Assembly (NCBI GenBank): GCA_964626635.1
Contig: CAZVFY010000002.1
Coordinates: forward strand, 5,300-69,299
From: an uncultured Candidatus Saccharibacteria bacterium
GTDB taxonomy: Bacteria; Patescibacteriota; Minisyncoccia; Phycocordibacterales; UBA918
Direction of reading: 5' to 3'
DNA: 64,000 nt
A program made the translations under genes and the position numbers. Below the pieces are notes generated by a model. That model had not been told where the DNA came from. It worked only from the letters and a program-made list of their open reading frames with translations, and did no database searches. Of this stretch, positions 20,088 through 53,102 are shown one piece after another. Numbering within the stretch: the stretch's first letter is position 1; each line of letters begins with the position of its first letter.

Positions 20088-22181
<2,094 letters not shown>

Positions 22182-22197
22182 CACAATGGCGACAACA

Positions 22198-22229
22198 CAA
22201 AAGCCCCGGCACGAGTACCGGGGCTTTTG
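22198..22229. terminator. bidirectional intrinsic terminator between gyrB and the convergent gene
   Basis: AAAAGCCCCGG-loop-CCGGGGCTTTT with flanking A and T tracts. Confidence 0.7.
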
Positions 22230-22241
22230 TGTTGTAGGCTA

Positions 22242-23285: not shown

Positions 23286-23404
23286 ATAAAATTATATTAG
23301 CATGGATTATAAATAAGTCAAGTTTGATGTAATCATAATTACAGTAGTTCAAGGTCTTCAACTCTATCTAAATGCACTGTAAATGATGCCTCAGACAAAA
23401 ACTA

Positions 23405-23432
23405 TTGACAAACTTATCATAAGTGCTATGAT
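23405..23432 (+). promoter_or_regulatory. sigma70-like promoter of the sortase gene
   Basis: TTGACA - 16 nt - TATGAT, 11 nt upstream of ATG 23444. Confidence 0.45.
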
Positions 23433-23443
23433 TGTTTGCACGT

Positions 23444-24166
23444 ATGGAGACGAGCAACTCATTCGAACGCCTCATTGAAACGCTGTGGGAGCGCAAAATT
23501 TTATTTTTTGCTGCTTTTGCAATAATTGGATTATTGACCTACGCGTTACTCGCGTGGGTTGATTTTTTACCTGAGCCTCGCACAGTAGATCTTGATCCTC
23601 AAGCAACGTCTGAAAACAGTGTTGCACTGGGTGATAGTACTACAGCATTTCCGGCTCAAGAGATTGAAGTTGTATCGGGATCAGAAGATCCAGCAGCAGA
23701 GCCGGTAGAAGTGTTCGTGGCACCGGTACTACCAAACTCAATTTTTATACCTGCTACCGGTAAAACCATCCCGGTCTTGAACCCTAACTCTCGGTCAGTC
23801 GCTGATCTGGATGCGGCGCTACTAAATGGTGTCGTGCGACACCCTGACTCTGCGACGCTAGAAAGTGAGGGTAACGTGTTTATTTTAGGCCATTCTAGCT
23901 ATCTGCCGAATGTGTTCAATGAGTATTTTCAGGCTTTTAATGGTATCCAAGACCTGGAGTGGGGAGACGAAATTTTGGTCACTGCCAATGGCGAGACATA
24001 TGTGTACGTAGTTGACCGCGTGTTTGAAGCGCGCGCCTCAGAAGTAACCATCCCGCTGGTTGACACGGGCCGTCGGCTGACACTCGCCACCTGCGACAGT
24101 TTTGGTAGTGTCGAAGATCGGTTCATTGTCGAGGCGTCATTTGATCGCATCGATATGCAAATATAA
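23444..24166 (+). CDS. sortase family transpeptidase
   Basis: N-terminal TM helix; conserved His (VFILGHSS); catalytic LTLATCDSF (TLxTC motif); ATG 23444 preferred over the track's TTG at 23432. Confidence 0.75.
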   Translation: METSNSFERLIETLWERKILFFAAFAIIGLLTYALLAWVDFLPEPRTVDLDPQATSENSVALGDSTTAFPAQEIEVVSGSEDPAAEPVEVFVAPVLPNSIFIPATGKTIPVLNPNSRSVADLDAALLNGVVRHPDSATLESEGNVFILGHSSYLPNVFNEYFQAFNGIQDLEWGDEILVTANGETYVYVVDRVFEARASEVTIPLVDTGRRLTLATCDSFGSVEDRFIVEASFDRIDMQI

Positions 24167-24352
24167 TTACTTGACAAAACCTCAAAAATAGATTACAGTT
24201 GCTTGTAATTTATCGCTCTTTACTGCACAACTCGTAGAGGCAGCTAGTACTCAACAAAATAATATAGCGCAGCACTGTCTTTCATGGGATTGCTTACTCT
24301 TGCGTATGTGGTGTAGGTAGGAGTATTAATTTTAGGAAATAATTATAAATGT

Positions 24353-27061
24353 ATGAATACAAAAACTGTATTACGCCTGAGCTATGTACTGCCGATGCTA
24401 TTTGCGTTGGTATTCACATTTGCCGCTCCGGCTGCAACTATTGCTGCATGGGATGGCAATCAGAGTTCAGGCTGGTCAAACAGCGGAGGATTCGATTGGG
24501 GTGATCGTCCAGATTGGACAAATTCATTTAACTGGTCGAATGACAATAACTATGGAGATAATGGATCTTCTAGCAGCGCCAGTTCAGAAACGAAGTGTAA
24601 AGTTGACTCTCGGGTTGAGACTATTTCGTATGGTGGCAGTGTGACTCTGACCTGGGACACTGTTGGCGCTACGTCGGTGACCGTAAACGGTGAGTCAGTT
24701 AACCTTAGTGAAGGTAGTAAAACCTTTACAAATATTACTGAAGACACTGAATACGTACTCGAAGTAAAAACCGACAACGGTTCATGTAAAACAACTATTA
24801 AGGTTATCTGTCTGCCACCAGTCGTCATTAAAGGATGTACCGACGAACACGCTTTCAACTACAACCCGGATGCAACCGAGGATGATGGCTCATGTGAATA
24901 CGAGGTTCCCGGGTGTACTGATGATAATGCCGTCAATTATAATCCAGACGCCACCAAAGACGATGGTTCTTGTACATATCAAAAGTTATGTGAACCCGGT
25001 GATCAGTTTTACAATCCAGAAGCCGACTTAGAAGGTACTATTTTCGACGGTACAAAAGGGCGGGTAGTAAACACTTCGCAATACTGCGATTACAAAATTG
25101 GTCTTGCATCATATGAAAAATTTGATGAAATTATTGACAATCAAATTATCTTTGACAGTAAAACCGGCGTCGTAAAAGCAAGCAGTCAGAAAGAGTTACA
25201 CGTTACTGTGCCTGAGTGCGCATACCAAATTAATCTCTTTTACGGTCATGTGCTACAATCGCTTGATGGACAGCGATACGGCGATCGATTACTGGACGCT
25301 GAACATCTCAATAGCGAAAAGGGCTACTGTGGTCAAGAACAAGTTGTCTTAAAATGTACGTTGGTTGCTGATCGTAATGAAATTAAGCGTGGCGAATCAG
25401 CGACTTTAACGTGGACTAGTGAGCACGCCGAGTTTGCGTTTATAGACCGGGGTATTAATGACGTCGAGCTAAATGACAGTCGATCAGTAAAACCCAAGAA
25501 GACTACTACCTACACCCTTACTGTCTTTGGAAAAGATGGTCAAGAAAAAAAATGTGATGAAACTATAAAAGTTGAGAAAGATCCGACTCCAACCCCGGTT
25601 CCAAAATGTCACTCTTTCAGTATTGCTGAAAGTAAGGTTGTGCCGAGCGGTGATATTACCCTGTCATGGGACACGTCTGACACAACTAATGTAACAATTA
25701 CAAATATTGGTAGCGTTGCTAGTGATGGTTCGAACCAGGTCTTTAGCGCACCAGACAGTGAGGGTGAATTCACTTACGTCTTAACTTATGCTGGTAAGAC
25801 AAACGACACCTGCCGCGATACGCTAACTGTTGAGCGTGAAAGTGCCAGTATACCAGTTTGTGATTTGTTTACTGCTAGCGACACGTCGATCAATAAGGGT
25901 GAGCAAACGACATTGCGGTGGCAAACGACTAATGTTACCAATGTCTCAATTAACAATGGGGTAGGGTCAAATCTAGAGGTTGACGGTAACGTTGAGGTGA
26001 CACCCCAATCAGATACCACCTACATCCTCACGTTTGATGGTAATACAAATGATGATTGTCGTGTGGACATCAGCGTGACTAAAGACAGTGGTGGAGGTGG
26101 TGGCGGCGGTGGCAGTTCTTCTCCACGGTGTGAACTAGATATTTCAGACACGCGTATTGCTGCCGGGGAAGAAATTACCCTGACCTGGGATTCGACCCGA
26201 GCGCGTGACCTCACTATTACTGATGACCGAGGCAATGTCATCGTTACCACCGAAGACAAATTGTCAGACGATAAAGATGAATTATTTGAAGGTTCGATTG
26301 ATCTGCGACCAACGCGTGATACTGAATACACGCTCGTGGTCGAACGTGGAAGTCGTGACCGTGAATGTAATGTGTCAGTAGATATTCGTGGCAGTGTCAG
26401 TGGCGCCAGTATCACTGTTTTAGAAGAGCGTGATCAACAGCCGCTCATTACTGGCATCTCGCTATCAGAAGTGCCACACACAGGGTTCGAAGCTGGACCA
26501 CTCATGACATTTGCGTTCTATGCACTACTGGTTACTTGGGCATTAGTGCTCGCGTATGTACTAGTAATCCCTAGAGGAGCAGTTGCAAATGTCCACACCA
26601 CCACCGCAACTCCAACTGGTAATATCACCGCTCCAGTACCAACCGTGGTCGACTCTAGTCGAGTGTTCCCAGACTATGCAGCTCACACCAATACACCACA
26701 GTATAGCGCTGCTGCCACCGTGGCCGCACCAACCAATCTGCCAACTGGTTCAGTCGAAGATATTCTGGCGGCGCCAGTTGCACCGGCACCAGCACCGACC
26801 GCTCTGACCACGCCGACTCAAGCAGCCGTCCTAGCCGAAGGCACGCCGGTAGAAGTCGCTGCCCTCGAAGCTGTAGCTCACAATAACCAAGCGCTCTTCT
26901 CGAGTGATGCTCTCAAGGTGTTCATGGACATTACTGCAACCCAAGAACAGCTCATGAAAGCCGAACAAGTCATTACACTTGGTAAGTCACTCTATCCACT
27001 AGAAGACGGCTGGCTCATGATCAACAAAGCTCGAATGTTTGAACTGTTGGCGCAAACCTAA
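24353..27061 (+). CDS. large repeat-rich cell-surface protein with internal sortase-like sorting signal
   Basis: Signal peptide; five ~100 aa beta-sandwich repeats with T(L/V)TWD cores; two Cys-bracketed NYNPDAT.DDGSC repeats; poly-Gly linker; VPHTG motif then TM helix then Arg, followed by a ~170 aa tail. Confidence 0.6.
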   Translation: MNTKTVLRLSYVLPMLFALVFTFAAPAATIAAWDGNQSSGWSNSGGFDWGDRPDWTNSFNWSNDNNYGDNGSSSSASSETKCKVDSRVETISYGGSVTLTWDTVGATSVTVNGESVNLSEGSKTFTNITEDTEYVLEVKTDNGSCKTTIKVICLPPVVIKGCTDEHAFNYNPDATEDDGSCEYEVPGCTDDNAVNYNPDATKDDGSCTYQKLCEPGDQFYNPEADLEGTIFDGTKGRVVNTSQYCDYKIGLASYEKFDEIIDNQIIFDSKTGVVKASSQKELHVTVPECAYQINLFYGHVLQSLDGQRYGDRLLDAEHLNSEKGYCGQEQVVLKCTLVADRNEIKRGESATLTWTSEHAEFAFIDRGINDVELNDSRSVKPKKTTTYTLTVFGKDGQEKKCDETIKVEKDPTPTPVPKCHSFSIAESKVVPSGDITLSWDTSDTTNVTITNIGSVASDGSNQVFSAPDSEGEFTYVLTYAGKTNDTCRDTLTVERESASIPVCDLFTASDTSINKGEQTTLRWQTTNVTNVSINNGVGSNLEVDGNVEVTPQSDTTYILTFDGNTNDDCRVDISVTKDSGGGGGGGGSSSPRCELDISDTRIAAGEEITLTWDSTRARDLTITDDRGNVIVTTEDKLSDDKDELFEGSIDLRPTRDTEYTLVVERGSRDRECNVSVDIRGSVSGASITVLEERDQQPLITGISLSEVPHTGFEAGPLMTFAFYALLVTWALVLAYVLVIPRGAVANVHTTTATPTGNITAPVPTVVDSSRVFPDYAAHTNTPQYSAAATVAAPTNLPTGSVEDILAAPVAPAPAPTALTTPTQAAVLAEGTPVEVAALEAVAHNNQALFSSDALKVFMDITATQEQLMKAEQVITLGKSLYPLEDGWLMINKARMFELLAQT

Positions 27062-27083
27062 GCGCTAAGAGTACAGCAAACAC

Positions 27084-27114
27084 AAAACCGCGCCTCAATA
27101 GAGGCGCGGTTTTG
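27084..27114. terminator. bidirectional intrinsic terminator between the surface-protein gene and thrS
   Basis: AAAACCGCGCC-TCAATAGA-GGCGCGGTTTT. Confidence 0.7.
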
Positions 27115-36010: not shown

Positions 36011-36724
36011 ATGACTGAACTCGATCACGAGACAACTGATTTGGTCGCGCTCGAAGGCGTGCTGGGCGCCACTTTTACCGACCAGACGATCCTCAAAAGC
36101 GCGATCACGCACCGTTCGTACCTCAACGAACACCGCGAAGCTGATTGGGAACACAACGAACGTCTAGAATTTCTGGGGGACGCAGTACTAGAACTGGTCG
36201 TGACTGACTATCTGTATCAACAATACCCGGACAAACCAGAAGGTGAGCTGACCGCTGTGCGCGCCGCGCTTGTCAATACCGTATCACTGGCGGCGACGTC
36301 CGAAGCACTTGATATCGGCGCGTACATGCTGATGAGTAAGGGCGAGGCCAAAGACACCGGCCGCGCGCGGCAGTATATCCTCGCCAACGCTTTCGAGGCG
36401 TGTGTAGGGGCGTTGTACGTAGATCAGGGGTACGCGGCTGCGCAGGCATTCATTGCTACAAATCTTTTTCCTAAAACAGACGAGATTGTCCGGCAGCGGC
36501 TGTGGCAAGACCCCAAATCCAGATTCCAAGAGCTCGCCCAAGAACACGCCAATGTCACCCCGACGTACGAAACATTGGGGCAGGAGGGGCCAGATCATGA
36601 TCGCGAATTCACGGTCGGCGTATTTTTACGCAAAGAAAAGATCGCGGTCGGCAAGGGTCGTAGCAAACAAGAAGCCGAACAGCAAGCCGCCGAGTCCGGT
36701 ATTACCCACAAGGGTTGGAATTAG
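36011..36724 (+). CDS. rnc: ribonuclease III
   Basis: ERLEFLGDAVLELVV signature; C-terminal dsRBD. Confidence 0.9.
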   Translation: MTELDHETTDLVALEGVLGATFTDQTILKSAITHRSYLNEHREADWEHNERLEFLGDAVLELVVTDYLYQQYPDKPEGELTAVRAALVNTVSLAATSEALDIGAYMLMSKGEAKDTGRARQYILANAFEACVGALYVDQGYAAAQAFIATNLFPKTDEIVRQRLWQDPKSRFQELAQEHANVTPTYETLGQEGPDHDREFTVGVFLRKEKIAVGKGRSKQEAEQQAAESGITHKGWN

Positions 36725-36753
36725 TTAGTAACTGGATACTATACACTGTATGC

Positions 36754-37302
36754 ATGCGTTTAGGCGGTTTTACATTAATTGAAATAATTGTAGTGGTGAG
36801 TATTATATCTCTGCTCGCTGCAGTAGTGGGTACAAACTACAGCAATGTTAGAACCGAGTCTCGCATCAAAGCTGAACAGGCTACACTGGAGCAAATGAAG
36901 CTCGCCTTTACGTTATACGCTGAATTATACGGTCATTATCCTGCTGGTGTGACTCTTGGCGGTTACCCTATGCCTAATAATGACAATTGTTCGTCGTGTT
37001 TTCTTAGGCCGCCGGCCAACCTTCTGGAAGCCACCATTCAATGGGGGGCTGCTGCCAGTGCAATGATTGGTGCTGGGCTTATCAATGATTCAATATTCAC
37101 AGATAGCTGGGGTATGCCGTATGCATATGATAATAATTCTTATGGCGCACACAACGTCGATCTGTTCTCCTTTGTTTGCAGCACTGGTCCAGACCGGGTC
37201 TGGGGTGTTTCTGACAGTGCCGCAACTATCGCTGTATTTGACCGCACCACTGGTACACATGAGCCGCTGGGTGACGATATCTGCGTTTTTTTACCTAATT
37301 AA
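36754..37302 (+). CDS. type IV pilin-like protein (prepilin-type N-terminal cleavage/methylation domain)
   Basis: MRLGG|FTLIEIIVVVSIISLLAAV class III signal. Confidence 0.7.
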   Translation: MRLGGFTLIEIIVVVSIISLLAAVVGTNYSNVRTESRIKAEQATLEQMKLAFTLYAELYGHYPAGVTLGGYPMPNNDNCSSCFLRPPANLLEATIQWGAAASAMIGAGLINDSIFTDSWGMPYAYDNNSYGAHNVDLFSFVCSTGPDRVWGVSDSAATIAVFDRTTGTHEPLGDDICVFLPN

Positions 37303-37305
37303 TGT

Positions 37306-38028
37306 ATGCTTCAGTTTACTACCCAAAACCGTGGTTTTACACTCTTAGAAATATTAGTGGTAACCGCGATTATCAGCATTTTTCTCACAACTGTGTACGT
37401 GAACTTTACTGGTTCATACGCTCAGGCTCGTGACGCCGAGCGCAAAGCAAATGTACAGAACGTCGCAACGGCATTGGAGTTATACAAAAATAAATACGGG
37501 CGGTACCCTGAAGCGTGCAACGGCCCAATTCCACGACCCACACCAAACCCAATACAAGGTTCTGTCTTGTGGTCCGGTGAGCCAGGTACTGCTGATGAGT
37601 GTCCGTCAAGTGGTGACGATTACATAGTGGGATTGGCACCAGAATTCATTGAAGAATTACCCACCGACCCTCGTGCCCGTACTGATGCTGGGTATGTATA
37701 CGCCGTAAATTATAACGGTTCGGCGTACAAGTTTATGGCGATGAACACGGTCGAGAACGAAACCGTCACGTCTGACAGCGCATTTTTCCGCTGCGGGCAA
37801 GGATTTAATGTAATGGGTACCCCTGCGACAGAAACATACGATGACGAAGTGATGTGCTTACGTACACCCAGAGAGTTTGGTGGTGGTAATGTTTCAATAG
37901 ACGGCTGCCATGCAGCTTCAAACAGCGCGATAAACGCCCGAACGTATGCAGTCTCGGCAGGCATTGCCACAGAAGGTTCTGATTTGAGACAGGTTGAACA
38001 CTACACCGAAATTGTCCGCTGCGGGTAG
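37306..38028 (+). CDS. type IV pilin-like protein
   Basis: QNRG|FTLLEILVVTAIISIFLTTVYV N-terminal prepilin motif. Confidence 0.7.
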   Translation: MLQFTTQNRGFTLLEILVVTAIISIFLTTVYVNFTGSYAQARDAERKANVQNVATALELYKNKYGRYPEACNGPIPRPTPNPIQGSVLWSGEPGTADECPSSGDDYIVGLAPEFIEELPTDPRARTDAGYVYAVNYNGSAYKFMAMNTVENETVTSDSAFFRCGQGFNVMGTPATETYDDEVMCLRTPREFGGGNVSIDGCHAASNSAINARTYAVSAGIATEGSDLRQVEHYTEIVRCG

Positions 38029-38087
38029 CACTTGTAATGTGCACTACCCGCAATCCCGCGGCGCACATTTAGTATGATAAGGACAGT

Positions 38088-38636
38088 ATGAAATACTTTC
38101 GCACACCGCTCCCAACCGCTGGGTTTACCCTCCTAGAAATTCTGGTGGTGACGTCGATCATCGCTATTCTCTCGAGTATTCTGTATGTCAGTTTTAGCGA
38201 CTCGCGCAACTTGGCACGGGACCGGGCGATGATGTCCGAGTTCAAGCAAGTGCAGCTGGCGTTGCAGACGTATTATGCACAGAATGATGCGTATCCAGCG
38301 CCTAATCCGTCGTGTGGGCTAAGCACTAGGGCAACTGAATCGGCTACCTGTGGTGATTACATAATTATTTCGAACGAATTTATTACTGAATTGCCGCGTA
38401 GCGCAGATTCGGGAAACAGTAATTGCCAAATATCATATCAGGTTGATAGTGTCAGCGACCCTCAAAATTATAAACTAACAGGGATCAATTGCATTGCCAG
38501 CGATCTCGTCATTACTCTAGAGAATGATATGGCTAGATGTCCGAGTACTTCTGATGGCTTAGGAGAATGCAGTTCCAGCCATGCAGACTTCGCCAAGTCA
38601 TTCGCTGTGTACAGCCCCGGGGGCCAGTCATATTAG
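38088..38636 (+). CDS. type IV pilin-like protein
   Basis: TAG|FTLLEILVVTSIIAILSSILYV N-terminal prepilin motif. Confidence 0.7.
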   Translation: MKYFRTPLPTAGFTLLEILVVTSIIAILSSILYVSFSDSRNLARDRAMMSEFKQVQLALQTYYAQNDAYPAPNPSCGLSTRATESATCGDYIIISNEFITELPRSADSGNSNCQISYQVDSVSDPQNYKLTGINCIASDLVITLENDMARCPSTSDGLGECSSSHADFAKSFAVYSPGGQSY

Positions 38637-40861: not shown

Positions 40862-40949
40862 CTTGAAAAATATTTCAGTTGTGGTATAAACGTAGCTGGA
40901 TCCTACCGTCACGATGACGGGGGACATTTCTCACAGGGAGTACAGTTCC

Positions 40950-41594
40950 ATGACAACCATGATCAGGTCGCTTCTGGCCCTCGTGCTAACCGTTTTGCTG
41001 CCGTTCGCCGCGTTCGCGTCGACGGTGGCACCGACGTCCGTCGAAATCTTCGGCGAACAGTTCGTCCGCAAGGACACCCGCTACATCGCCACGGTGGACA
41101 TCCCAAGCTCGGGCGTGCCTGAGCGGATCACGGTGACGACCCGGCCACTGCCGGTGCGCTCGACGTTCGATATGCTAGCACGTGAGGTCGGATTCGATTC
41201 ACCTTACGGCTTCCTCGACACCACCGCGCTGCTTTTGCCGGGGGAGACCGGCATCATCAGCGGCGGATCCTTCACCGATGTGAACGGTGTCACCTCGCCG
41301 ACGGAGTTCCAGGTCGAGATCTTCCTCTTAGCCTCGGACGTCGACGCGCTCGGGACACTGGATCGCCAAATGCTACTGGACAGGCCGATCGGCGTCGAGC
41401 TTGGCTGGCTCGATGCGGCCGGCATGCCGATCGCCCTCACGCCGGACTATGTCAGCCAACTGCCAACTGTCGGTAATATGGACGACGGTAACGGACCGTC
41501 GCCAGTCCCGCTGCCGCCGGCTGCCTGGTTCCTCCTCTCGGGGCTTGCCGGTCTGGGCTATGTCGCCAGGCATCGCTCGCGCGCAGCCGCCTGA
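40950..41594 (+). CDS. secreted protein with VPLPA/PEP-CTERM-like C-terminal sorting domain; compositionally GC-rich
   Basis: SD AGGGAG 9 nt upstream; signal peptide MTTMIRSLLALVLTVLLPFAAFA; C-terminal VPLPPAAWFLLSGLAGLGYVARHRSRAA; GC3 visibly above neighbours. Confidence 0.5.
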   Translation: MTTMIRSLLALVLTVLLPFAAFASTVAPTSVEIFGEQFVRKDTRYIATVDIPSSGVPERITVTTRPLPVRSTFDMLAREVGFDSPYGFLDTTALLLPGETGIISGGSFTDVNGVTSPTEFQVEIFLLASDVDALGTLDRQMLLDRPIGVELGWLDAAGMPIALTPDYVSQLPTVGNMDDGNGPSPVPLPPAAWFLLSGLAGLGYVARHRSRAAA

Positions 41595-44590: not shown

Positions 44591-44944
44591 ATGGAACAGT
44601 ACGAAGATAAGCAATTCTTGGAAACTACCGTCAAAGCCCTCGTTGATAACCCGGACGCCGTACAGATCAACCGCACCGTCGATGAAATGGGCGTGTTACT
44701 TACGCTCGATGTGCATGCTGATGATATGGGCAAGATCATCGGCCGCAGCGGCAACACTGCCAAGGCGATCCGCACTTTGTTGCGAGTGGTCGGCATGAAG
44801 CACGACGCCCGCGTCAACCTCAAAATCAACGAACCTGAAGGTGGCCGCGGCATGGATCCACAGATGCACGAAGCGATGCAAGAAGACAACCCTGTCAGCG
44901 ATACCAAGTCACTTGATGACGCGATTGATGATCTGAAGATTTAG
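44591..44944 (+). CDS. KH-domain RNA-binding protein (UPF0109/YlqC-like)
   Basis: GKIIGRSGNTAKAIRTLL KH type II GxxG motif; conserved position after rpsP; start MEQYEDK at 44591. Confidence 0.7.
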   Translation: MEQYEDKQFLETTVKALVDNPDAVQINRTVDEMGVLLTLDVHADDMGKIIGRSGNTAKAIRTLLRVVGMKHDARVNLKINEPEGGRGMDPQMHEAMQEDNPVSDTKSLDDAIDDLKI

Positions 44945-45029: not shown

Positions 45030-45815
45030 ATGAAACGCGCTCACTTTTACATACTCACCGCCGCCATTGGTCTCTTACTTATTCTTGCAATTGTTGTGTT
45101 TACTAACGAACCCGACGTAGCCCCAGGAGATACGGCTGGCAATACCACACAACCGCAACCAGCCCCGACCGAACCAGCAGAGCGAACTGCACCCCTCAGC
45201 ACCACCACCGCCGCTGGTACCTTCATCATCGACCCCGCCATCCCAATCAACGAGCGCTGTACCCCCGTGACCCTGGCGTGTCTGGAGGCGCAGCCGGAGT
45301 GGAACCCAACCATGGCGACAACCGGGATCGAGCGGATTGACCCGAGCGAGCTCACGCTGTTCGATGGTACCTACCAACTAGACTACCAATCCGTCCCGCG
45401 CAGTACCGATCCATTTACTTTCGTGACCGCTAAAGACGAGCACGACCCTGCATATTGCGCACAGTATGACCTCACCGGCTTGGATTTATTTATCCGTGAT
45501 GAGGGACCCTTAGAACCATCATGTTCAATTTACCCACCAGAAGCGTACCAAGAGTTCGTCATTCTTGATGAGAACGAGGCGGTGGTGCATGCGTATCGCT
45601 TATCGGATAAATATTCGTTATTAGAACTAAGGGCCGGCGTGCAACTAATGGGGAGGGTTAATTCGGTCGGTGCAGGATGTTGCAACAGTCAATACAGTAC
45701 ATCTCTCTCTCTCTCATTTATAAACTGGTCTGATTATAATCAGTTTTATAACCCTATCGTTACAGGGGTTTATATAAACCCTTACACCGGCGCCTTCAAC
45801 GACCGCACCAATTAG
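45030..45815 (+). CDS. signal-anchored extracytoplasmic protein, paralog family member A1
   Basis: MKRAHFYILTAAIGLLLILAIVVF anchor; conserved core TTTAAGTFIIDPAIPI.ERCTPVTLACLEAQPEW; contains an in-frame (TC)7 tract; TATACT box 6 nt upstream of the ATG. Confidence 0.6.
   Translation: MKRAHFYILTAAIGLLLILAIVVFTNEPDVAPGDTAGNTTQPQPAPTEPAERTAPLSTTTAAGTFIIDPAIPINERCTPVTLACLEAQPEWNPTMATTGIERIDPSELTLFDGTYQLDYQSVPRSTDPFTFVTAKDEHDPAYCAQYDLTGLDLFIRDEGPLEPSCSIYPPEAYQEFVILDENEAVVHAYRLSDKYSLLELRAGVQLMGRVNSVGAGCCNSQYSTSLSLSFINWSDYNQFYNPIVTGVYINPYTGAFNDRTN
45702..45715 (+). repeat. (TC)7 dinucleotide repeat inside paralog A1 coding sequence (currently in frame)
   Basis: tctctctctctctc encoding SLSLS. Confidence 0.8.
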
Positions 45816-45913
45816 TCGACACCCTTTTGGCCCCGTGCTACACTCGCCTTAGAACAGCCGCCCTTTCGGGCGGTTTCTGTTCTTTGATAACCTCAAACAA
45901 AAAGGAGGCAGTC

Positions 45914-48850
45914 ATGGCTGCAACTACAACAAGTGTCGATCGAAGTGTAACTGTAGAGGAGGGTGATCGTGCTCGCATCTACATCGAGCGCGAAGGAGAT
46001 CTAGCTACCTACTCAACTGTTTGGGTTACAGTCGTCTTTAGTGATCGGGACGAGAGCTGGGGCGACTTATCATTTCGCCGCGTCGGCGGTGATGGGGTGA
46101 GTTGGTTCAATCAAAATCAAAACCAAGGCGCAATCAATTTTGCCCCTGGTGATGATCGAGCGTACGTAGAATTCGACATCACTGAAGACGGTCAGGCTGA
46201 GGATTACGAATCCTTTGGAATCGAAATCTACAACCCAACCAATACTAATATCGGTGATTCGCGCGACTTTATCAAAGTTCCCGAACACGATACCGCGCCC
46301 AACACCAACCTGCCGCTCGTCCGCGTCGATGACGCGGTCGCAGCGCTCGAGGGTACGGGCCAAGAACTGGAGTGGAAGATCACGTACACCAACCCGTACA
46401 ACCGGGACTGGGATGGCAGCGAAGACGGCCGCACGGTCGTGCACTACCAGATCATCAATGACCGGACGGGGCAGGTGGTGGACAGCGGCTCGACCACCAA
46501 CAGCAACGTAGATGCTTACGAGGTAGAAACGCGCACCATCGACTACCGTCCGCCAGACGACAATGTCTACACCGGCGGCACGACGTACACCTTCCGGGTC
46601 ACCCGGCTCGAGTACCTCAGTGGCCAGACCGGCAATGTCGCGTCTGGCCTAGTGGTCGATGACGAGCTACCATATGTACCGCCGATCCCACCAGAAATCT
46701 CGATCCGCGGCGACACGGTCGACGAAGGCGAGGTTGCCAACGTCGAGCTGCGTCTCAACAAAGCGAGCGCGTCCGATGTCTCGGTCGTGGTTAGCACGTA
46801 CTACGGTACGTTTAATGAAGCCAACACTGGCGGCAGCGGCCTCGACTACGCTGGGCTTGTGGACCGTTCGTTCACTATCCCCGCCGGGGACACGAGCGTC
46901 ACGGTGCCGATCACGACGTTCACTGACAACATCTACAACGAAGGAGACGAACGCTTTGAAGTCCGGATCGAATCCGCCAGTGGCGCAACCATAGATGATG
47001 AAAGCGCCACGGTACGGATCCGGGATACCACGGTAGAACCGGAGCCAGTCCCTGACCCGGTCTTGTCCGGGTCGCAAGTATTCGAGTACAACCTCGCCTT
47101 GACCAGCGCGGAATCGATCATGGGTACCAATCGTTTGGTATCGGTGATCGAGTCCGAACCACTCTTGCTGCGTCTCGCAAAGACTTTGCAAGACGCTGGC
47201 AGCAATGTGATCGATGGTCTGGTGCAGGCTGGATTGTCGCTGATCGGGACTACTGCATACGCGGCCGAAGCCGATGTGCCACCTGTCCAGTCGTTCAACT
47301 CTATGGCCGACGAGTGGTATGAGTTCTTGTTCCCAAGTTCGTCGTACGGGCGTCTGCTCGCTAGTCTGCCAGATTACTACACCTCGTGGGATCTGGCGGT
47401 GCGTGATGTCGAGCTGCGAGTTGGTGACTACGTGGATGATCGGTTGGTGATCGGTCAGCCACTGTTCAGTGAAGATGGACTCGAAGTCGATGCAGGGGGT
47501 CGGACGATCTATAGCAGTCTGCAAGGTAGGTATGACGCTGTAGACAGAATGACCTCTCACTTCAGCAATGATGGCCATGCCTTTGATTGGGGTGGCCGGA
47601 TAACTGGTAATAACGATGCCTTCGTATTGGCTCCAATCGGAGCCTGGGTCGTTCACGCAGTTGATCATTATGTCAATGATCCAACCAACAATGGCTGGGG
47701 TAGTGATAGTAACAAAAATGATAACGGAGGGTTCGGAAATGTTGTTACGATTCGTGTTGCACACCCCAATGGCGCAGACGTTGATATAACGTTTGCTCAC
47801 CTTAAGAAAGGAAGTGTGCCCGATGCATTTCTGAAAGCAACGGAAGCCAATCCAGTCGAGGTTGATCAATACCAAATCCTTGGTTTGATGGGGAATACGG
47901 GTGCTGGCGATAAACACTTGCACATGCAGGTGGGAAACGGTATTGAAAACGGCATTGCTGTTATACCAAGTGAAGATATCGAGTCTAAACTTAACTTGAA
48001 TCCACCTGTCTACATGCTTGGCTTCGGCAATGCCGATATCGCCTCTCGCGCAGAATTGAAAGGAGATACCTCTCTGGCGCAAGATGCTGGCTTCCCAGCT
48101 GGCGATAGCCGTGGCAGCGAACCGAATGTGGTCAGTGGCATCCAATCCACCGTCGACTACGATGACTTCCGGGCCATCAACGACGCGTACTTCAACCCAC
48201 CACCCCAAGGCCCTCGCCAAATCATCACCACCGAATACGACGCCACTACCATTGGGTCGATTGCGGAGCGAGGTGGATGGACAGACATCTTGGACGGCAA
48301 CGCTTCACGAGTGAAGGTGCACGATCAAGACAACGAGTTGCGCTATAAACGCACGGACATTGAGGCCAGTGCGCGCACGGATGAACGGCACGAATCCAGA
48401 GTGCTAGTCACCGAGTTCGTCGTCGATCTTGCTGATGGTGTCGACCTCATCGGCGGCGAACTCGAACTTACGCTCGGGAAGCGCATCAAGCTTGACGCGT
48501 CTGGCCTCGACCAAGTCTCGCTGGCGGTGATCGCGGCCGAGATCGGCGACGATCTCGATCGCGCTGATCGCGATACGTTCGACTTCATCAACCCACTTTC
48601 TAACCAGGTGGGAGTGGATGAGAACTGGCGTCGCGGGGACACCGTTTCGTTTACGTTAAACGAGGCGGGCCTGACACATTTGGCCGCGGGCGGGGAACTG
48701 GCCGTGGCAACGTCGTACCATTTCGACAGTACGACCCCTCCCAATGACCGTAATGGCCGTTGGGACGAACTCCGCATCCAGATCGACGATGCGGATCTCG
48801 AACTGGAACTGCAGCTGCCAATCAACGGAGCTGACGAGTTCCTGTTCTAG
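45914..48850 (+). CDS. large Calx-beta and M23-peptidase-like domain protein without a signal peptide
   Basis: SD AAAGGAGG 5 nt upstream; Calx-beta-like segment (GDTVDEGEVANVELRLNKAS....ERFEVRIESASGATIDDESATVRIRD); M23-like GLMGNTGAGDKHLHMQV and AHPNGADVD; the last ~16 codons recur in downstream repeats. Confidence 0.65.
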   Translation: MAATTTSVDRSVTVEEGDRARIYIEREGDLATYSTVWVTVVFSDRDESWGDLSFRRVGGDGVSWFNQNQNQGAINFAPGDDRAYVEFDITEDGQAEDYESFGIEIYNPTNTNIGDSRDFIKVPEHDTAPNTNLPLVRVDDAVAALEGTGQELEWKITYTNPYNRDWDGSEDGRTVVHYQIINDRTGQVVDSGSTTNSNVDAYEVETRTIDYRPPDDNVYTGGTTYTFRVTRLEYLSGQTGNVASGLVVDDELPYVPPIPPEISIRGDTVDEGEVANVELRLNKASASDVSVVVSTYYGTFNEANTGGSGLDYAGLVDRSFTIPAGDTSVTVPITTFTDNIYNEGDERFEVRIESASGATIDDESATVRIRDTTVEPEPVPDPVLSGSQVFEYNLALTSAESIMGTNRLVSVIESEPLLLRLAKTLQDAGSNVIDGLVQAGLSLIGTTAYAAEADVPPVQSFNSMADEWYEFLFPSSSYGRLLASLPDYYTSWDLAVRDVELRVGDYVDDRLVIGQPLFSEDGLEVDAGGRTIYSSLQGRYDAVDRMTSHFSNDGHAFDWGGRITGNNDAFVLAPIGAWVVHAVDHYVNDPTNNGWGSDSNKNDNGGFGNVVTIRVAHPNGADVDITFAHLKKGSVPDAFLKATEANPVEVDQYQILGLMGNTGAGDKHLHMQVGNGIENGIAVIPSEDIESKLNLNPPVYMLGFGNADIASRAELKGDTSLAQDAGFPAGDSRGSEPNVVSGIQSTVDYDDFRAINDAYFNPPPQGPRQIITTEYDATTIGSIAERGGWTDILDGNASRVKVHDQDNELRYKRTDIEASARTDERHESRVLVTEFVVDLADGVDLIGGELELTLGKRIKLDASGLDQVSLAVIAAEIGDDLDRADRDTFDFINPLSNQVGVDENWRRGDTVSFTLNEAGLTHLAAGGELAVATSYHFDSTTPPNDRNGRWDELRIQIDDADLELELQLPINGADEFLF

Positions 48851-48900
48851 AACGAACAACTGATAGCACCCGTGGCGTCCGCGCCACGGGTGGTTTTTTA
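48795..48900 (+). repeat. R1: ~100 nt two-hairpin repeat (3' codons of the large gene plus terminator), followed by a conserved promoter
   Basis: GAACTGGAACTGCAGCTGCCAATC..GGAGCTGACGAGTTCCTGTTCTAG imperfect hairpin, then CACCCGTGGCGTCCGCGCCACGGGTGGTTTTTT; four copies in the island. Confidence 0.8.
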
Positions 48901-48936: not shown

Positions 48937-49647
48937 ATGAAACGATCTCATTTTTACATCCTCGTGGCCGCCATTGGCTTACTCGTTCTCTTGGCTATAT
49001 TTGCGTTGTACGCAAACGATACTGAAACTAGTCCAGTTACTACAATCACCAATACCACAGAACCGCAATCAGTCCCGTCTGAACCAACAGAATCTACCAC
49101 ACCGATCTCCACCACCACTGCAGCCGGCACCTTCATCATCGATCCAGCCATTCCGATCGAAGAGCGTTGCACCCCCGTGACGCTGGCGTGTTTGGCGGCG
49201 CAGCCGGAGTGGAGTCCTGCTACGGAATTCAACGGTATGAAACGGGTGGATCCCTTAGAATTATCAATGTTTACTGGTGACATTGAATTGCAAGAAACAG
49301 TTTTGGGAAAAACGCGGGATGTTTTTACCTTGGTACAGCCGTCAGGAGAACTCACAGAAAAATATTGCGCTGACAGAAACATTGCTGTCCCAAATGCAAT
49401 TTGTCCTAAATATGCACTACCTACTTATAATGAATTTGCTATTAAGATTACAGACACTGATGAGATCGTTCATGCGTATGAGCTTGTTAATAATAACTCA
49501 ACAACGTACGTGCCATACTGCGTACCGAGTCTGGAATACTGTGATGGATTGGGTGGAGATAGCGCTGTCGGAAGAGATGCGATTCCACATAAAATTGGAA
49601 TTATGATTTGGCAATGGGACGACATCAACAAAAAAACCCGAGCCTAG
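48937..49647 (+). CDS. signal-anchored extracytoplasmic protein, paralog A2
   Basis: MKRSHFYILVAAIGLLVLLAIFAL plus conserved core; A7 tract at 49630-49636 near the 3' end. Confidence 0.6.
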   Translation: MKRSHFYILVAAIGLLVLLAIFALYANDTETSPVTTITNTTEPQSVPSEPTESTTPISTTTAAGTFIIDPAIPIEERCTPVTLACLAAQPEWSPATEFNGMKRVDPLELSMFTGDIELQETVLGKTRDVFTLVQPSGELTEKYCADRNIAVPNAICPKYALPTYNEFAIKITDTDEIVHAYELVNNNSTTYVPYCVPSLEYCDGLGGDSAVGRDAIPHKIGIMIWQWDDINKKTRA

Positions 49648-49755: not shown

Positions 49756-49826
49756 GGCCACGAGTTCTTGTTTTCAAACGAACAACTAATAACACCCGTG
49801 GCGTGCGCGCCACGGGTGGTTTTTTA
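49756..49826 (+). repeat. R2: partial copy of the repeat (terminator hairpin and flanks) with conserved promoter downstream
   Basis: GAGTTCTTGTTTTCAAACGAACAACTAATAACACCCGTGGCGTGCGCGCCACGGGTGGTTTTTT; following promoter ATCTTATTCTAAGCTACAGTGCTGCTATACT is identical to R1. Confidence 0.75.
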
Positions 49827-49862: not shown

Positions 49863-50580
49863 ATGAAACGAACTCACTTCTACCTCCTTGCCACCGCCAT
49901 TGGCTTACTCATCCTCCTGAGTGTGTTTGCGCTGTACAAAAACGATACTACCAACGGGCCCGTAGCTTCGACCATTATTCCAGCCGCAGAACCACTTTCC
50001 ACCACCACTGCCAACGGCGACACTTTCATCACCGACCAATCCATCCCAATCGTGGAGCGCTGCACCCCCGTGACCCGCGCTTGTTTGGAGGTGCAGCCGG
50101 AGTGGGGGCCGACGATGGCGACGACCGGAATCGAGCGGGTTGAGCCGGGGGAGTTAATATATATATAATCCAGACTATATTACCTCAGTTAGTAATGCAA
50201 ATAATTTTGCAATTGTTCACACTGGCCTGGTACACAGTAATATGAACTGTAACGATCGTGGTATTAATCCTAATTCTGTAAACGGCTGGGGTGCACCGGT
50301 GAGTTGTGCGCAGCGCGACAAATCAGTTTTTACTGAATTACTCGTTATTGATGCAATTACTCAAGAACCACTACATGCATATAAAATTACTGGCAATTAC
50401 TCTTGGCTCGGTAGCTATCTAGAAGGGTGGAAGGTGGGAGGCTATCCGTTCGGCGGACAGCCAAATTATTTATATGTCACAATTTTCAATTGGTCTGATG
50501 ATAGTTATGCAGAGTTCTCTAGGCCGACATTGAATTACCGCCTCAACCCCTACACTGGCGAACTGACTGTAAATGACTAG
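49863..50580 (+). pseudogene. paralog A3, split into two ORFs by a frameshift at a (TA)5 tract
   Basis: 49863-50168 encodes the conserved N-terminal 101 aa and ends GELIYI*; 50242-50580 encodes a family-like C-terminus; adding one TA unit fuses them in frame. Confidence 0.6.
50158..50167 (+). repeat. (TA)5 dinucleotide repeat at the A3 frameshift point
   Basis: tatatatata; other paralogs have GAGTTGACGTTGTTTAAT at the equivalent position. Confidence 0.8.
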
Positions 50581-50616: not shown

Positions 50617-51237
50617 ATGAAACGCTCCCACTTCTACCTCCTCGCTACCGCTATCGGCCTCCTTATCCTCCTCGCGCTATTTGCGTTGTATACAAACACC
50701 ACTGACAACAGTCCTGCTACCATTAATGCACCTGCCGGCGCAACCACCTCGCCTGCAGCCACACCCCTCTCTACCACTACCGCAGCCGGCACCTTCCTCA
50801 TCGACCCCGCCATTCCGATCGCGGAGCGTTGCACCCCCGTGACCCTCGCTTGTTTGGAGGCGCAGCCGGAGTGGGGGCCGACGATGGCGACGACCGGAAT
50901 CAAGCGGGTTAAGCCGGGGGAGTTGACGTTGTTTAATAACCGCTATGAATTGGAACGCTTTCCAGTGCCTAAGGGTAGACAACCAGAACTAAGTCCATTT
51001 GAAATGGTCGTGCGCGCAGCAGATTTTAAAGAAGAGTACTGTGCACAGTATGACGATCCAGACCTGCGTCCAGGCCAACGTTGTAACATACTGCCGTACA
51101 CCGCATATACCGAAATGGCCATTGTTTTAAAAGGTACGGAAAAAGTGGTGCACGCGTATCGCACTACAGATGAATACTCGTTGCTGTATCCGTACTGGTT
51201 AGTGATGGGGGGGCGTGGAATATTACTAGCGGCTTAG
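50617..51237 (+). CDS. signal-anchored paralog A4, C-terminally truncated by a frameshift at a G7 tract
   Basis: MKRSHFYLLATAIGLLILLALFAL plus core nearly identical to A3 at DNA level; the +1 frame downstream to 51355 encodes a family-like C-terminus (KQQYGFTIRDWSG...). Confidence 0.6.
   Translation: MKRSHFYLLATAIGLLILLALFALYTNTTDNSPATINAPAGATTSPAATPLSTTTAAGTFLIDPAIPIAERCTPVTLACLEAQPEWGPTMATTGIKRVKPGELTLFNNRYELERFPVPKGRQPELSPFEMVVRAADFKEEYCAQYDDPDLRPGQRCNILPYTAYTEMAIVLKGTEKVVHAYRTTDEYSLLYPYWLVMGGRGILLAA
51207..51213 (+). repeat. G7 homopolymer at the A4 truncation point
   Basis: atgggggggcg; G8 would extend the ORF by ~40 codons with family homology. Confidence 0.8.
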
Positions 51238-51388
51238 GTACTAAACAGCAGTACGGTTTTACAATAAGAGATTGGTCCGGCGTCCTTAACGGCTACGCCG
51301 GTTACCGAGCGACTCCTGACGATGTTTTTGTACTTACTCAATCCGTACACTGGGCAGTTTGAGTTGTATTAGTTATTACCTTTATATC

Positions 51389-51490
51389 ACTCGAACTAGA
51401 ACTGCAGCTGCCAATCGGAGCTGACGAGTTCTTGTTCTAAGCAGTACAACTGATAGCACTCGTGGCGTCCGCGCCACGGGTGGTTTTTTT
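51389..51490 (+). repeat. R3: copy of the two-hairpin repeat with no large gene upstream
   Basis: CTCGAACTAGAACTGCAGCTGCCAATCGGAGCTGACGAGTTCTTGTTCTAA...CACTCGTGGCGTCCGCGCCACGGGTGGTTTTTTT; in-frame stop 9 codons upstream of the conserved part. Confidence 0.8.
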
Positions 51491-51512: not shown

Positions 51513-52208
51513 ATGAAACGATTCATACTCTTACTGTTAACACTAATCATATTAATGTTCGCGTTGCACTACGTTCATTACAGTAAGAAAGCCAATTTAA
51601 TGATGAGTTGGTCTGAAACTCATAATCCCGGTATCAATACCACCCTTAATGAAGAAGAGTACTGCAATTATCTATCAGCTAGTTGCTTGCAAAATCAACC
51701 TGGCTGGGATCCAACACTTGAAACCGAGACCTTTTCACGAATTAGTCCGCAGGATGTAGAAATTTTTGCCTCCGAAGTGGGGGTGTCTTCACGATCATCT
51801 TTGGTAAACGAAATACCAAACTTCGAAATAATATTGCCAAATTACGTTGAAGGCCCAGAATATTGCACACAATGGTCTTCAAGCAAGTTTTTTATCACAG
51901 AACTCAAAGGGTATGACGTGCAGTGCTCAAAGTATCGCCCGGAGCTTTATCGTGAATTTGTTGTGCGATCTACAGACACTAATGAAATTATTCATGCTTA
52001 CAGACTAAAAGATAGTTATACCTTGCTGCCTCTTATTGCTACTGTAATGGAAGGTGGTCCGGGCATAAACTATGGTAGACCAGACAAAGGAGATTTTGGG
52101 TTTAGTGTTTATAGTAGCTTGCTACTCGATGATGGGAGGAGTTTTGATTTAGTGGCTAGTTATTACATTGATGTTCTTACCGGTAAGATTATTTCAATTC
52201 CAGATTAA
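51513..52208 (+). CDS. divergent member (A5) of the signal-anchored paralog family
   Basis: MKRFILLLLTLIILMFAL anchor; shared C-terminal motifs EYCTQW, YREFVV, EIIHAYRLKDSYTLL; T8 tract at 51505-51512 just upstream of the ATG. Confidence 0.55.
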   Translation: MKRFILLLLTLIILMFALHYVHYSKKANLMMSWSETHNPGINTTLNEEEYCNYLSASCLQNQPGWDPTLETETFSRISPQDVEIFASEVGVSSRSSLVNEIPNFEIILPNYVEGPEYCTQWSSSKFFITELKGYDVQCSKYRPELYREFVVRSTDTNEIIHAYRLKDSYTLLPLIATVMEGGPGINYGRPDKGDFGFSVYSSLLLDDGRSFDLVASYYIDVLTGKIISIPD

Positions 52209-52280
52209 TTTTTGTAATATATAAATCATACATCCGCCAATCTGCTTCAAGAAAGTCAGAAAACACATTTATAAATGTGG

Positions 52281-52380
52281 ATCTAGAACTAGAACTGCAG
52301 CTGCCAATCGGAGCTGACGAGTTCTTGTTCTAAGCAGTACAACTGATAGCACTCGTGGCGTCCGCGCCACGGGTGGTTTT
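52281..52380 (+). repeat. R4: copy of the two-hairpin repeat directly upstream of trmD
   Basis: Nearly identical to R3 over ~95 nt. Confidence 0.8.
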
Positions 52381-52427
52381 CTGGTAGTTGCATTTTTCGT
52401 ATGCTACATTCTAATATATCTGCAAGT

Positions 52428-53102
52428 ATGTTGCACTTCCACCTCATCACCATTTTTCCTGATGTCTGCCGGGCGTACACCGACGCCAGTGTATTAGGGC
52501 GCGCCCAGAAAACCGATAAAGGCAAAGGTGCCAAAGTGCGCGGGCGGAAAATTACTGTGAGTTACTATAACCCCCGCGAGTATACGAATGGCAAACATAA
52601 AAAAGTCGACGACAAGCCCTACGGTGGCGGACCAGGTATGGTGATGAAAGCCGAGCCGATCATAAAGGCGTGGCAAGCGGCGGTGGGGCGCAAGCGAACA
52701 GCACAAATAAAAACGCTGATTACCTCACCGCGCGGGCGGGTGTTTGATCAGGCGATGGCCAAAGAACTGGCCGAGCAGTACGAGCACATCGTACTCATCG
52801 CTGGGCGTTACGAGGGGATCGATAGTCGTGTCGCGGCAGCATTGGATGCCGAGTACGTGTCGGTCGGGGACTACGTGCTGACCGGTGGGGAATTGCCGGC
52901 ACTAGCGATCGTTGATGCAACCGCCAGGCACGTGCAGGGTGTGTTAGGGGAGAGCGAGTCGCTTGAAGAGTCGCGTGCGACCACCGGCGAAGCGTACACC
53001 CGTCCGGAAGTCATTGAATGGAAGAAGAAAAAAATTGCTGTACCAAAGGTATTTGTGGCAGGGAATCATAAGGAGATTGAGAAGCGTCGGGCTAAACAAT
53101 AG
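52428..53102 (+). CDS. trmD: tRNA (guanine37-N1)-methyltransferase
   Basis: MLHFHLITIFPDV N-terminus; DDKPYGGGPGMVM SAM-binding motif; Lys-rich insertion near residue 30. Confidence 0.85.
   Translation: MLHFHLITIFPDVCRAYTDASVLGRAQKTDKGKGAKVRGRKITVSYYNPREYTNGKHKKVDDKPYGGGPGMVMKAEPIIKAWQAAVGRKRTAQIKTLITSPRGRVFDQAMAKELAEQYEHIVLIAGRYEGIDSRVAAALDAEYVSVGDYVLTGGELPALAIVDATARHVQGVLGESESLEESRATTGEAYTRPEVIEWKKKKIAVPKVFVAGNHKEIEKRRAKQ

Follow-up and report, generated by a model that had tools for sequence, protein, structure and literature searches.

Lysostaphin and zoocin A are secreted M23B peptidoglycan endopeptidases directed against other bacteria, and the gene of each is accompanied by an adjacent self-protection gene (Lif and Zif, respectively), protection of this type being due to enzymes of the FemABX type, which are cytoplasmic and modify the cross-bridge. 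Leaderless wall hydrolases that are paired with immunity proteins located beyond the cytoplasmic membrane are known from type VI secretion systems (T6SS; Tae/Tai and Tge/Tgi) and from the type IV secretion system of Xanthomonas (X-T4SS; X-Tfe/X-Tfi), and the polymorphic toxin systems include CdiA/CdiI, Rhs, WapA/WapI and the LXG toxins of the type VII secretion system, such as TelC/TipC. In a stretch of 64,000 nucleotides from contig CAZVFY010000002.1, which we call the window, we studied a gene island that shares features with all of these systems. Its large gene (45914..48850; all features of the island lie on the forward strand) encodes a protein of 978 residues that lacks a signal peptide and carries a divergent metallopeptidase domain of the M23 fold behind a Calx-beta stalk. 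It is accompanied by several genes of a family of small membrane-anchored proteins, named here the A-family. We read this island, with a probability of about one half, as encoding a secreted and polymorphic M23 peptidoglycan endopeptidase effector together with its membrane-tethered cognate immunity or binding partners, a system that is diversified by cassette exchange and that in most members is exported by means of a C-terminal signal. The relatives used for comparison stand at loci that were found either from the large protein (L002, L003 and L008, which are three strains of one species, and L004, L014, L015 and L016) or from the A proteins (L006/L007, L010, L011, L012 and L013).

The M23 domain (residues ~517-735, 47462..48118) was recognized by profile, fold and invariant residues. 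The model PF01551 gave no match on the full-length protein in the Pfam scan and NCBIfam gave none either, and a search of the PDB sequences with the full protein or with a three-sequence M23 profile returned nothing meaningful. Matches to PF01551 below the threshold were found in the same region of all three close members (best E=1.4e-4), and a match to this model is listed for the L006 relative in a precomputed domain table. The profile of the M23 region has about 11 strong relatives among 1.84 billion representative proteins, and 34 of the 39 weaker profile matches that were scanned are bona fide Pfam M23 proteins. Moreover, hhalign aligned the family with bona fide M23 proteins at a probability of 99.8% (E=8e-28), and in this alignment the SH motif of the family falls on the first His of the latter. 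The AlphaFold2 model of residues 495-765, made from an 11-sequence alignment, reached a predicted local distance difference test (pLDDT) score of 77 and a predicted template modelling (pTM) score of 0.83. In the Foldseek search of the PDB the top eight matches of this model were all M23 enzymes, followed by a sharp drop to unrelated noise. These matches include 6smk (E=5.5e-5), 3nyy, 6ik4, 3it5, 4zyb and 8af1 (probability 0.99-1.00), and the enzymes among them are EnpA, LytM, a LytM-like protein, LasA, pseudoalterin and beta-lytic protease. A preliminary description of this DNA, made from the sequence alone, had proposed a LytM/M23-like metallopeptidase on account of the motif GNTGAGDKHLHMQV, an identity that both the predicted fold and the remote homology bear out.

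Across 12 family members the pair S548-H549 and the residues D558, H629, H668 and H670 are invariant, the last two belonging to GNTGAGDKHLHMQV. The codons of the five residues of catalytic type are at 47558-60 (H549), 47585-87 (D558), 47798-800 (H629), 47915-17 (H668) and 47921-23 (H670). The first motif of the family is SH-x(8-22)-D and not HxxxD. Beta-lytic protease, which belongs to M23A, uses His22, Asp36, His82, His121 and His123 (PMC8715609). This set is mirrored by the five residues of the window protein, and the spacing of 39 residues from H629 to H668 equals that from His82 to His121 (PMC8715609). The domain is thus like the M23A enzymes (LasA, beta-lytic protease and pseudoalterin) in its fold, in the H/D/H/HxH set, in the loop between the first His and the Asp and in the spacing of 39, and we consider it a divergent, probably active metallopeptidase of the M23 fold. 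The M23A enzymes are, however, small Sec-exported pre-pro-enzymes without a partner gene, whereas the domain of the window lies inside a leaderless multidomain protein of 978 residues, scores below the Pfam cut-off, is polymorphic in the relatives and is linked to A genes. An origin as a phage lysin was also considered. Neither PHROGs nor a tblastn search of 50,697 phage records gave a match, and for this reason we do not regard the large protein as a phage lysin. One further candidate for the family, at locus L005 (Rhodobacterales), was rejected as it is an ordinary M23 protein of 502 residues without an A gene.

The large protein stands in an open reading frame (ORF) that extends from 45827 to 48850 in the ORF list, and two starts come into question. 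The ATG at 45914 has the Shine-Dalgarno (SD) sequence AAAGGAGG 5 nt upstream and gives the N-terminus MAATTTSVDRS. The spacer of 98 nt that separates it from the preceding gene, A1, contains a terminator-like hairpin belonging to A1 (45856..45875). The TTG at 45827 was rejected: it would add only 29 residues, MAPCYTRLRTAALSGGFCSLITSNKKEAV, with a maximum Kyte-Doolittle hydropathy (12 residues) of 1.49, it has no SD sequence and the extension crosses the A1 terminator. Because of the SD sequence, the terminator in the spacer and the weak hydrophobicity of the TTG extension, we take ATG 45914 as the real start. From this start the maximum hydropathy over 15 residues is 1.08 in the first 70 residues, and a hydropathy scan of the 978 residues found no segment of transmembrane grade (maximum for the whole protein, 1.35). 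The lack of a hydrophobic leader, which had been remarked upon before, therefore holds for the corrected start, at which no Sec or Tat signal appears.

The homologues begin at the same residue, with MATTVAFGSN in P0002, P0003, L012, L013 and L008, with MSSTISFGSD in L004 and with MPILTVTGG or MATLTVTPGS in P0015, L006, L011 and P0022. Leaderless proteins make up 13 of the 15 family members with a complete N-terminus. The other two, P0012 and P0018, possess classical Sec leaders ending in ...GNAMA and ...GNALA, directly before the sequence ATEV.FGSN at which the other members start. As these leaders end exactly where the other members begin, the family is likely to work outside the cytoplasm, mostly without a Sec signal. 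An extracellular location is also suggested by the Calx-beta domain, by repeats of the RTX type in P0015 and P0018, and by a partner protein with a transmembrane anchor and an invariant pair of Cys. A leaderless, predicted peptidoglycan hydrolase with an extracytoplasmic partner resembles the effectors of the T6SS and of the X-T4SS; unlike these, no features of the T6SS or of the XVIPCD type were detected, and the domain architecture and the organism are different. P0018 (L015 10001-13672) combines its Sec leader with the C-terminal modules that are described below. At the locus of P0011 (L016, ~480-552) the homology to the N-terminus of the family, TTPTEVEFAGNY, starts right after a stop codon and without ATG, GTG or TTG, which points to either a sequencing error or a non-canonical start codon; near this locus there is also a Fic/RhuM gene.

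Upstream of the peptidase domain the protein is organized in three parts. The N-terminal ~370 residues (1-372, 45914..47029) are regarded as a beta-sandwich stalk because residues 274-372 (46733-47029) match the Calx-beta family of Pfam (PF03160, E=2.2e-6) and residues 74-371 align with the repeats of the multi-Calx-beta protein P0004. The Calx-beta-like repeat of the preliminary description is thereby recovered, with 28.1 bits against a gathering score of 27, which is a small margin. It is followed by a conserved linker (residues 380-502, 47051..47419; LLRLAKTL...QAGLSL..TTAYA) and by the junction motif VGDYVDDRLVIGQP (residues 503-516, 47420..47461), which is nearly invariant in the family and has the consensus VGDYVD(D/G)RLVIxQP. 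Downstream of the peptidase domain, the C-terminal domain (residues 761-978, ~218 residues, 48194..48847) has no detectable relatives and ends in ...ADEFLF. A strong terminator hairpin (48867..48892) follows the gene and is the first of four near-identical copies.

The gene upstream, A1 (45030..45815), is intact and encodes 261 residues, in which an N-terminal transmembrane anchor and a Thr/Pro-rich linker that is disordered precede a globular ectodomain of the alpha/beta type, whose Cys are conserved. In the AlphaFold2 model of the A-family (pLDDT 74.6) the transmembrane helix covers residues 3-25 and the disordered Thr/Pro-rich linker residues 28-64, and the alpha/beta globular domain follows. 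In the 18 sequences of the alignment A9 the residues L85, P89, W91, P93, R102, C143, C165, E175 and H187 are invariant, H187 being only nearly so once three more A sequences (one double-domain and two partial) are included. A second pair of Cys, C77/C84, is present in the A subfamily of the window. The family is very rare, 5.8 billion proteins containing 20 clusters of it, and has no match in Pfam, NCBIfam or PHROGs. Two variants were seen in the relatives: L004 (13582-15960) encodes two A-family proteins of 390-395 residues with an extra domain of ~160 residues between the anchor and the A domain, and in P0068 (L006 10001-11275) the A domain is present twice in succession.

Hidden Markov model scans of all ORFs placed an A gene beside the large gene in nine of ten lineages, with up to six copies of it in L011. 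The exception is L014, whose enzyme is of the P0022 type and where two other signal-anchored small proteins take the position of A; L010 opens with a C-terminal module, which lies at the edge of the contig. The association of the large protein with the A-family that was postulated from the window thus extends across genomes. A predicted wall endopeptidase with an adjacent gene recalls lysostaphin/Lif and zoocin A/Zif, in which Lif and Zif protect the producer. The partner of the window differs from Lif and Zif in being extracytoplasmic and membrane-tethered, in having no fold match and in occurring in arrays. In being anchored in the membrane outside the cell it is like TipC of the TelC/TipC pair.

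The three conspecific strains L002, L003 and L008 replace parts of this locus between fixed flanks. At the DNA level the flanks are 99-100% identical, as are the first 400-500 residues of the large protein, whereas the cassettes are only 18-72% identical. Between L002 and L003 the difference is a sharply bounded block of ~750 bp with 62-72% identity, which is exactly the M23 region and starts from the GDYVDGRLVI motif, at the position equivalent to the junction motif of the window protein. In L008 the replaced segment (18-59% identity) runs from about residue 404, which corresponds approximately to the conserved linker of the window protein, to the end of the gene, that is, over the C-terminal 60%, and takes in the downstream gene; identity returns to 100% further downstream. 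The downstream gene of L008 encodes a different protein of 345 residues that has only the signal anchor in common with the A-family. This replacement is the behaviour of a polymorphic toxin locus, and the resemblance of the island to polymorphic effector/immunity islands, until now based on the window alone, is strengthened by it. In addition, L003 and L008, but not L002, contain an extra unit composed of an orphan C-terminal module of 80 residues and another A gene. Such free-standing ORFs of 80 residues, each with its own Met and one full RTX-like C-terminal module (..EWLSL) and each followed by an A gene, are located at 7922-8164 in L003, at 9663-9905 in L008 and at 1214-1456 in L010. The orphan pieces have no enzyme domain, and the ORFs might be expressed as small proteins. 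A distal part that can be exchanged behind a conserved N-terminal one, the junction motif, the downstream gene co-replaced in L008 and the orphan modules of fragment plus partner are all features that are shared with the polymorphic toxins.

In the window the array of A genes is partly decayed. Downstream of the large gene, A2 (48937..49647, 236 residues) is probably degenerate, its last strand (..LYTGEIN..) being in another frame. A3 (49863..50580) is a pseudogene whose two pieces, 49863-50168 and 50242-50580, stand in different frames. A4 (50617..51372) is frameshifted, being in frame to 51237 with its C-terminal strand (LNPYTGQFELY) in another frame, and A5 (51513..52208, 231 residues) is intact and the most divergent copy. 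The signal-anchored paralogs with Cys pairs that had been described around the large gene are real, five in number and with C143 and C165 invariant, but only A1 and A5 are intact. Remnants of the 3' end of the large gene, each with a copy of its terminator, stand between and behind these genes. The first (49760..49826), a shorter piece, is identical to 48834-48900 in 60 of 67 positions, the second (51390..51489) comprises the last ~17-19 codons (..LELELQLPIGADEFLF*) with 94 of 104 identical positions, and a further one (52275..52380; 98 of 110), in which these last codons recur as well, lies just before trmD. The strong hairpin is found in four copies, after the large gene, A2, A4 and A5. Judging from the sequence, these remnants are consistent with units of A gene, large gene and terminator that have lost the large gene, which is how the repeats R3 and R4 had been explained, as footprints of lost effector copies. 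They are equally consistent with duplications that have a boundary in the 3' end of the large gene. What stands of the earlier explanation is that the repeats of the 3' end are real; as by-products of duplication they are accounted for just as well.

The C-termini of the family are of interest with regard to export. In all complete members other than the window protein the C-terminus is formed by a Gly/Asp-rich module of ~78 residues, present in one to four copies, which in P0015 and P0018 scores as RTX repeats (PF00353, 39.3 and 26.4 bits, cut-off 23). In every complete C-terminus hydrophobic residues come last and are preceded by an acidic or polar one (ADEFLF, DSLIFI, ENLV, EDLLV, DALTLL, DQLI and NFVFV), and this end is kept in the window protein although its C-terminal domain is unrelated to those of the other members. 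The conserved end fits an uncleaved export signal of the type I kind, and this is suggestive only. With type I substrates (RTX proteases, RTX bacteriocins and adhesins of the LapA type) the family has in common the absence of a leader, the Calx-beta and RTX-like repeats and the acidic-then-hydrophobic C-terminus. A review on RTX proteins proposed that TolC is unnecessary for RTX-type export in Gram-positive cells, which have a single membrane; it also mentions an RTX/HlyB/HlyD operon in Streptococcus sanguinis and the existence of RTX bacteriocins (PMC3034196). At L006 (677-5318) and L011 (2043-6690) a resistance-nodulation-division (RND) pump (ACR_tran) is encoded divergently and immediately upstream of the large gene, together with a membrane-fusion protein (BSH_CzcB/YknX_C). 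This membrane-fusion protein pairs with the RND pump and not with an exporter of the ATP-binding cassette (ABC) type, and the arrangement may represent synteny only or a link to export.

According to the effector/immunity reading, the protein of 978 residues would be a peptidoglycan endopeptidase of the M23 family that depends on Zn, acts outside the cell and is borne by a Calx-beta stalk, with an active-site layout like that of beta-lytic protease and LasA (M23A), including the loop between the first His and the Asp. Its export would most probably proceed via an uncleaved C-terminal signal, through a type-I-like ABC route that dispenses with TolC in a single-membrane cell, and once outside the enzyme would attack the wall of another cell, either a host or a competitor. 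The A proteins would be tethered to the membrane of the producer by their N-terminal anchor and flexible Thr/Pro-rich linker, and would bind the variable region of the enzyme and shield the producer's own wall as immunity proteins. Recombination at conserved junctions (about residue 400 or GDYVDGRLVIxQP) would exchange the enzyme cassette, in some cases together with the partner gene, and the arrays of spare or decaying partner genes, together with the orphan 3' effector fragments, would be the leftovers of this exchange.

Several observations weigh against this reading. Residues 500-720 taken alone score 22.5 bits against PF01551 (E=1.4e-4), below the cut-off of 28.7. As regards export, neither Pfam nor a jackhmmer model of the 78-residue module found an RTX-like module or GGxGxD repeats in the window protein. 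The island contains no pair of ABC exporter and membrane-fusion protein, the nearest ABC exporter being at 12537-14300, 30 kb away. The family also has two members with Sec leaders, all of which sets it apart from the type I substrates, and one of these members, P0018, has a Sec leader in addition to the C-terminal modules, so that the modules may serve binding and not export. Moreover, the domains known from trafficking in polymorphic toxins (LXG, Rhs/YD, TPS/FHA, PAAR and others) were sought in the large protein with Pfam and NCBIfam and none was found. The enzyme cassette that varies lies inside the protein, with conserved C-terminal modules behind it, in contrast to the cassettes of the classical C-terminal toxins, from which the locus also differs in its host and in its new partner family. 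The downstream A proteins of L002 and L003 are 94% identical despite different M23 cassettes, which weakens a strict co-variation. The model of the A-family has no significant fold match in the PDB (best E=0.22) and no known immunity fold. Finally, the polymorphism was seen in relatives and not in the species of the window: the scans of metagenome contigs returned no conspecific genome of the window organism (113 pattern matches, unconfirmed; one contig of 2 kb).

The main rival explanation, which we consider unlikely but worth retaining, is that the A proteins are not inhibitors at all and serve surface docking, as cohesin/dockerin-like anchors or receptors that hold the hydrolase on the surface of the epibiont, for instance by way of its C-terminal module, in order to open the wall of the host where the two cells touch. 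Linkage and co-swapping suit any specific protein partner equally well, and a transmembrane anchor with a long flexible linker suits a tether. The duplicated units pair a C-terminal module with an A gene. In L002 and L003 the C-terminus of the large protein is ~99% identical while the M23 cassette differs, and the high identity of their A proteins is what would be expected if A binds the C-terminal part. On the other hand, the window protein keeps its A genes although it has no C-terminal module, a single anchor would suffice, and up to six paralogues with decaying copies are typical of immunity arrays and not of structural anchors.

A housekeeping function, in which the enzyme would be an autolysin for remodelling of the cell's own wall or for division (similar to LytM, EnvC or NlpD) and the A proteins its membrane regulators, is improbable. 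The automatic name given by JGI to the identical protein is indeed MepM/NlpD, and the island is placed among the core genes rpsP, ylqC, trmD and rpoB. But the family is extremely rare and patchy (the ~11 strong representatives given above), the genomic surroundings of the large gene differ between lineages, the cassette is replaced within one species and the partner genes occur in several copies, some of them in decay, for which reasons an essential housekeeping role does not fit.

There is likewise little probability that the protein is a Ca-binding surface adhesin with a non-catalytic, M23-like binding module, as in degenerate LytM domains. Such a function would be in keeping with the Calx-beta stalk, with a weak LapA-like match in the Pfam scan of the large protein and with the RTX-type modules of the relatives, and it would explain a first motif that is not the canonical HxxxD. 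Degenerate LytM domains lose the five catalytic-type residues, which here are invariant in 12 divergent members, swapped cassettes included, and the spacing of the His and Asp of the first motif has precedent in active M23A enzymes. Finally, that the locus is an artefact or a coincidence, with a leader hidden by a mis-called start (there is an in-frame TTG upstream, and metagenome assemblies can hold errors) or with neighbours that are unrelated passengers, is very improbable in view of the ATG with its SD sequence, the terminator that the extension would have to cross, the homologues that start at the same residue, the identical protein in the NCBI, JGI and Logan assemblies (contigs up to 155 kb) and the linkage in nine of ten lineages.

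The organism to which the window belongs can be placed only broadly. Its RpoB is 85-90% identical to proteins of metagenome-assembled genomes (MAGs) that are labelled Ca. Kaiserbacteria, Pacebacteria, Parcubacteria or Paceibacterota, which are inconsistent labels within the Candidate Phyla Radiation (CPR), and L004, which holds a family member, is a MAG labelled Ca. Saccharibacteria. On the basis of these RpoB neighbours and of the Saccharibacteria-labelled MAG, the host is a CPR/Patescibacteria bacterium of uncertain class. An epibiotic lifestyle is assumed for it from the group in general. Little is known of how CPR bacteria fasten on host cells, feed on them or compete for them, and to our knowledge almost no effectors have been assigned to these bacteria. 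Our search of the literature on effectors of Saccharibacteria and Patescibacteria, on M23 and on type I secretion found no description of this family or of any CPR polymorphic toxin.

We are tempted to suggest, tentatively and at less than even odds, that the island is an effector-immunity system owned by CPR bacteria. In it a wall-cutting M23 enzyme that has no leader, is targeted by its C-terminus and stands on a Calx-beta stalk would be combined with a new family of membrane-tethered extracellular inhibitors; the system would be diversified by cassette exchange, and would serve to open the wall of the host at epibiotic contact or to kill rival epibionts. If this is true, it would be the first described weapon of antagonism or of host breaching in these ultra-small bacteria, and an example of the Sec-independent export of a large protein in a single-membrane CPR cell. 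As the family is rare, a general CPR mechanism is unlikely. The locus is in any case a clonable candidate, with a predictable enzyme (a peptidoglycan endopeptidase), a partner of new fold and natural allelic cassettes for the study of specificity, and it poses a tractable question, namely how a leaderless protein of 100 kDa is exported from a single-membrane cell.

The island is located between ylqC (encoding a KH protein, 44591-44944) and trmD (52401-53102), with the genes for SMC and RNase R, rpsP and rpoB/rpoC around it. The insertion hits the usually conserved cluster rpsP-ylqC-rimM-trmD, and there is no rimM between ylqC and trmD. Just upstream of the SMC gene there are three consecutive genes encoding type IV pilin-like proteins (..GFTLIEI.., ..GFTLLEI..; 36715-38636, forward strand). 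Another gene of this strand (40914-41594) encodes a protein of 226 residues that starts with a hydrophobic leader and whose C-terminus, VPLPPAAWFLLSGLAGLGYVARHRSRAAA, is like the PEP-CTERM/VPLPA-CTERM sorting signal. The match of this protein to PF07589 (E=0.026) is below the threshold, and one would not expect signals of the exosortase type in the genome of a CPR bacterium.

A segment of low G+C content (22000-27100; 0.435-0.463 vs ~0.52 elsewhere) is also present in the window. It holds a gene (24353-27061) for a protein of 902 residues that has a leader and no Pfam match. ARAGORN located a tRNA-Gly of 98 nt at 23946-24043, at which the tRNA model of Rfam is silent at its gathering score; the tRNA may contain an intron, or the call may be false.

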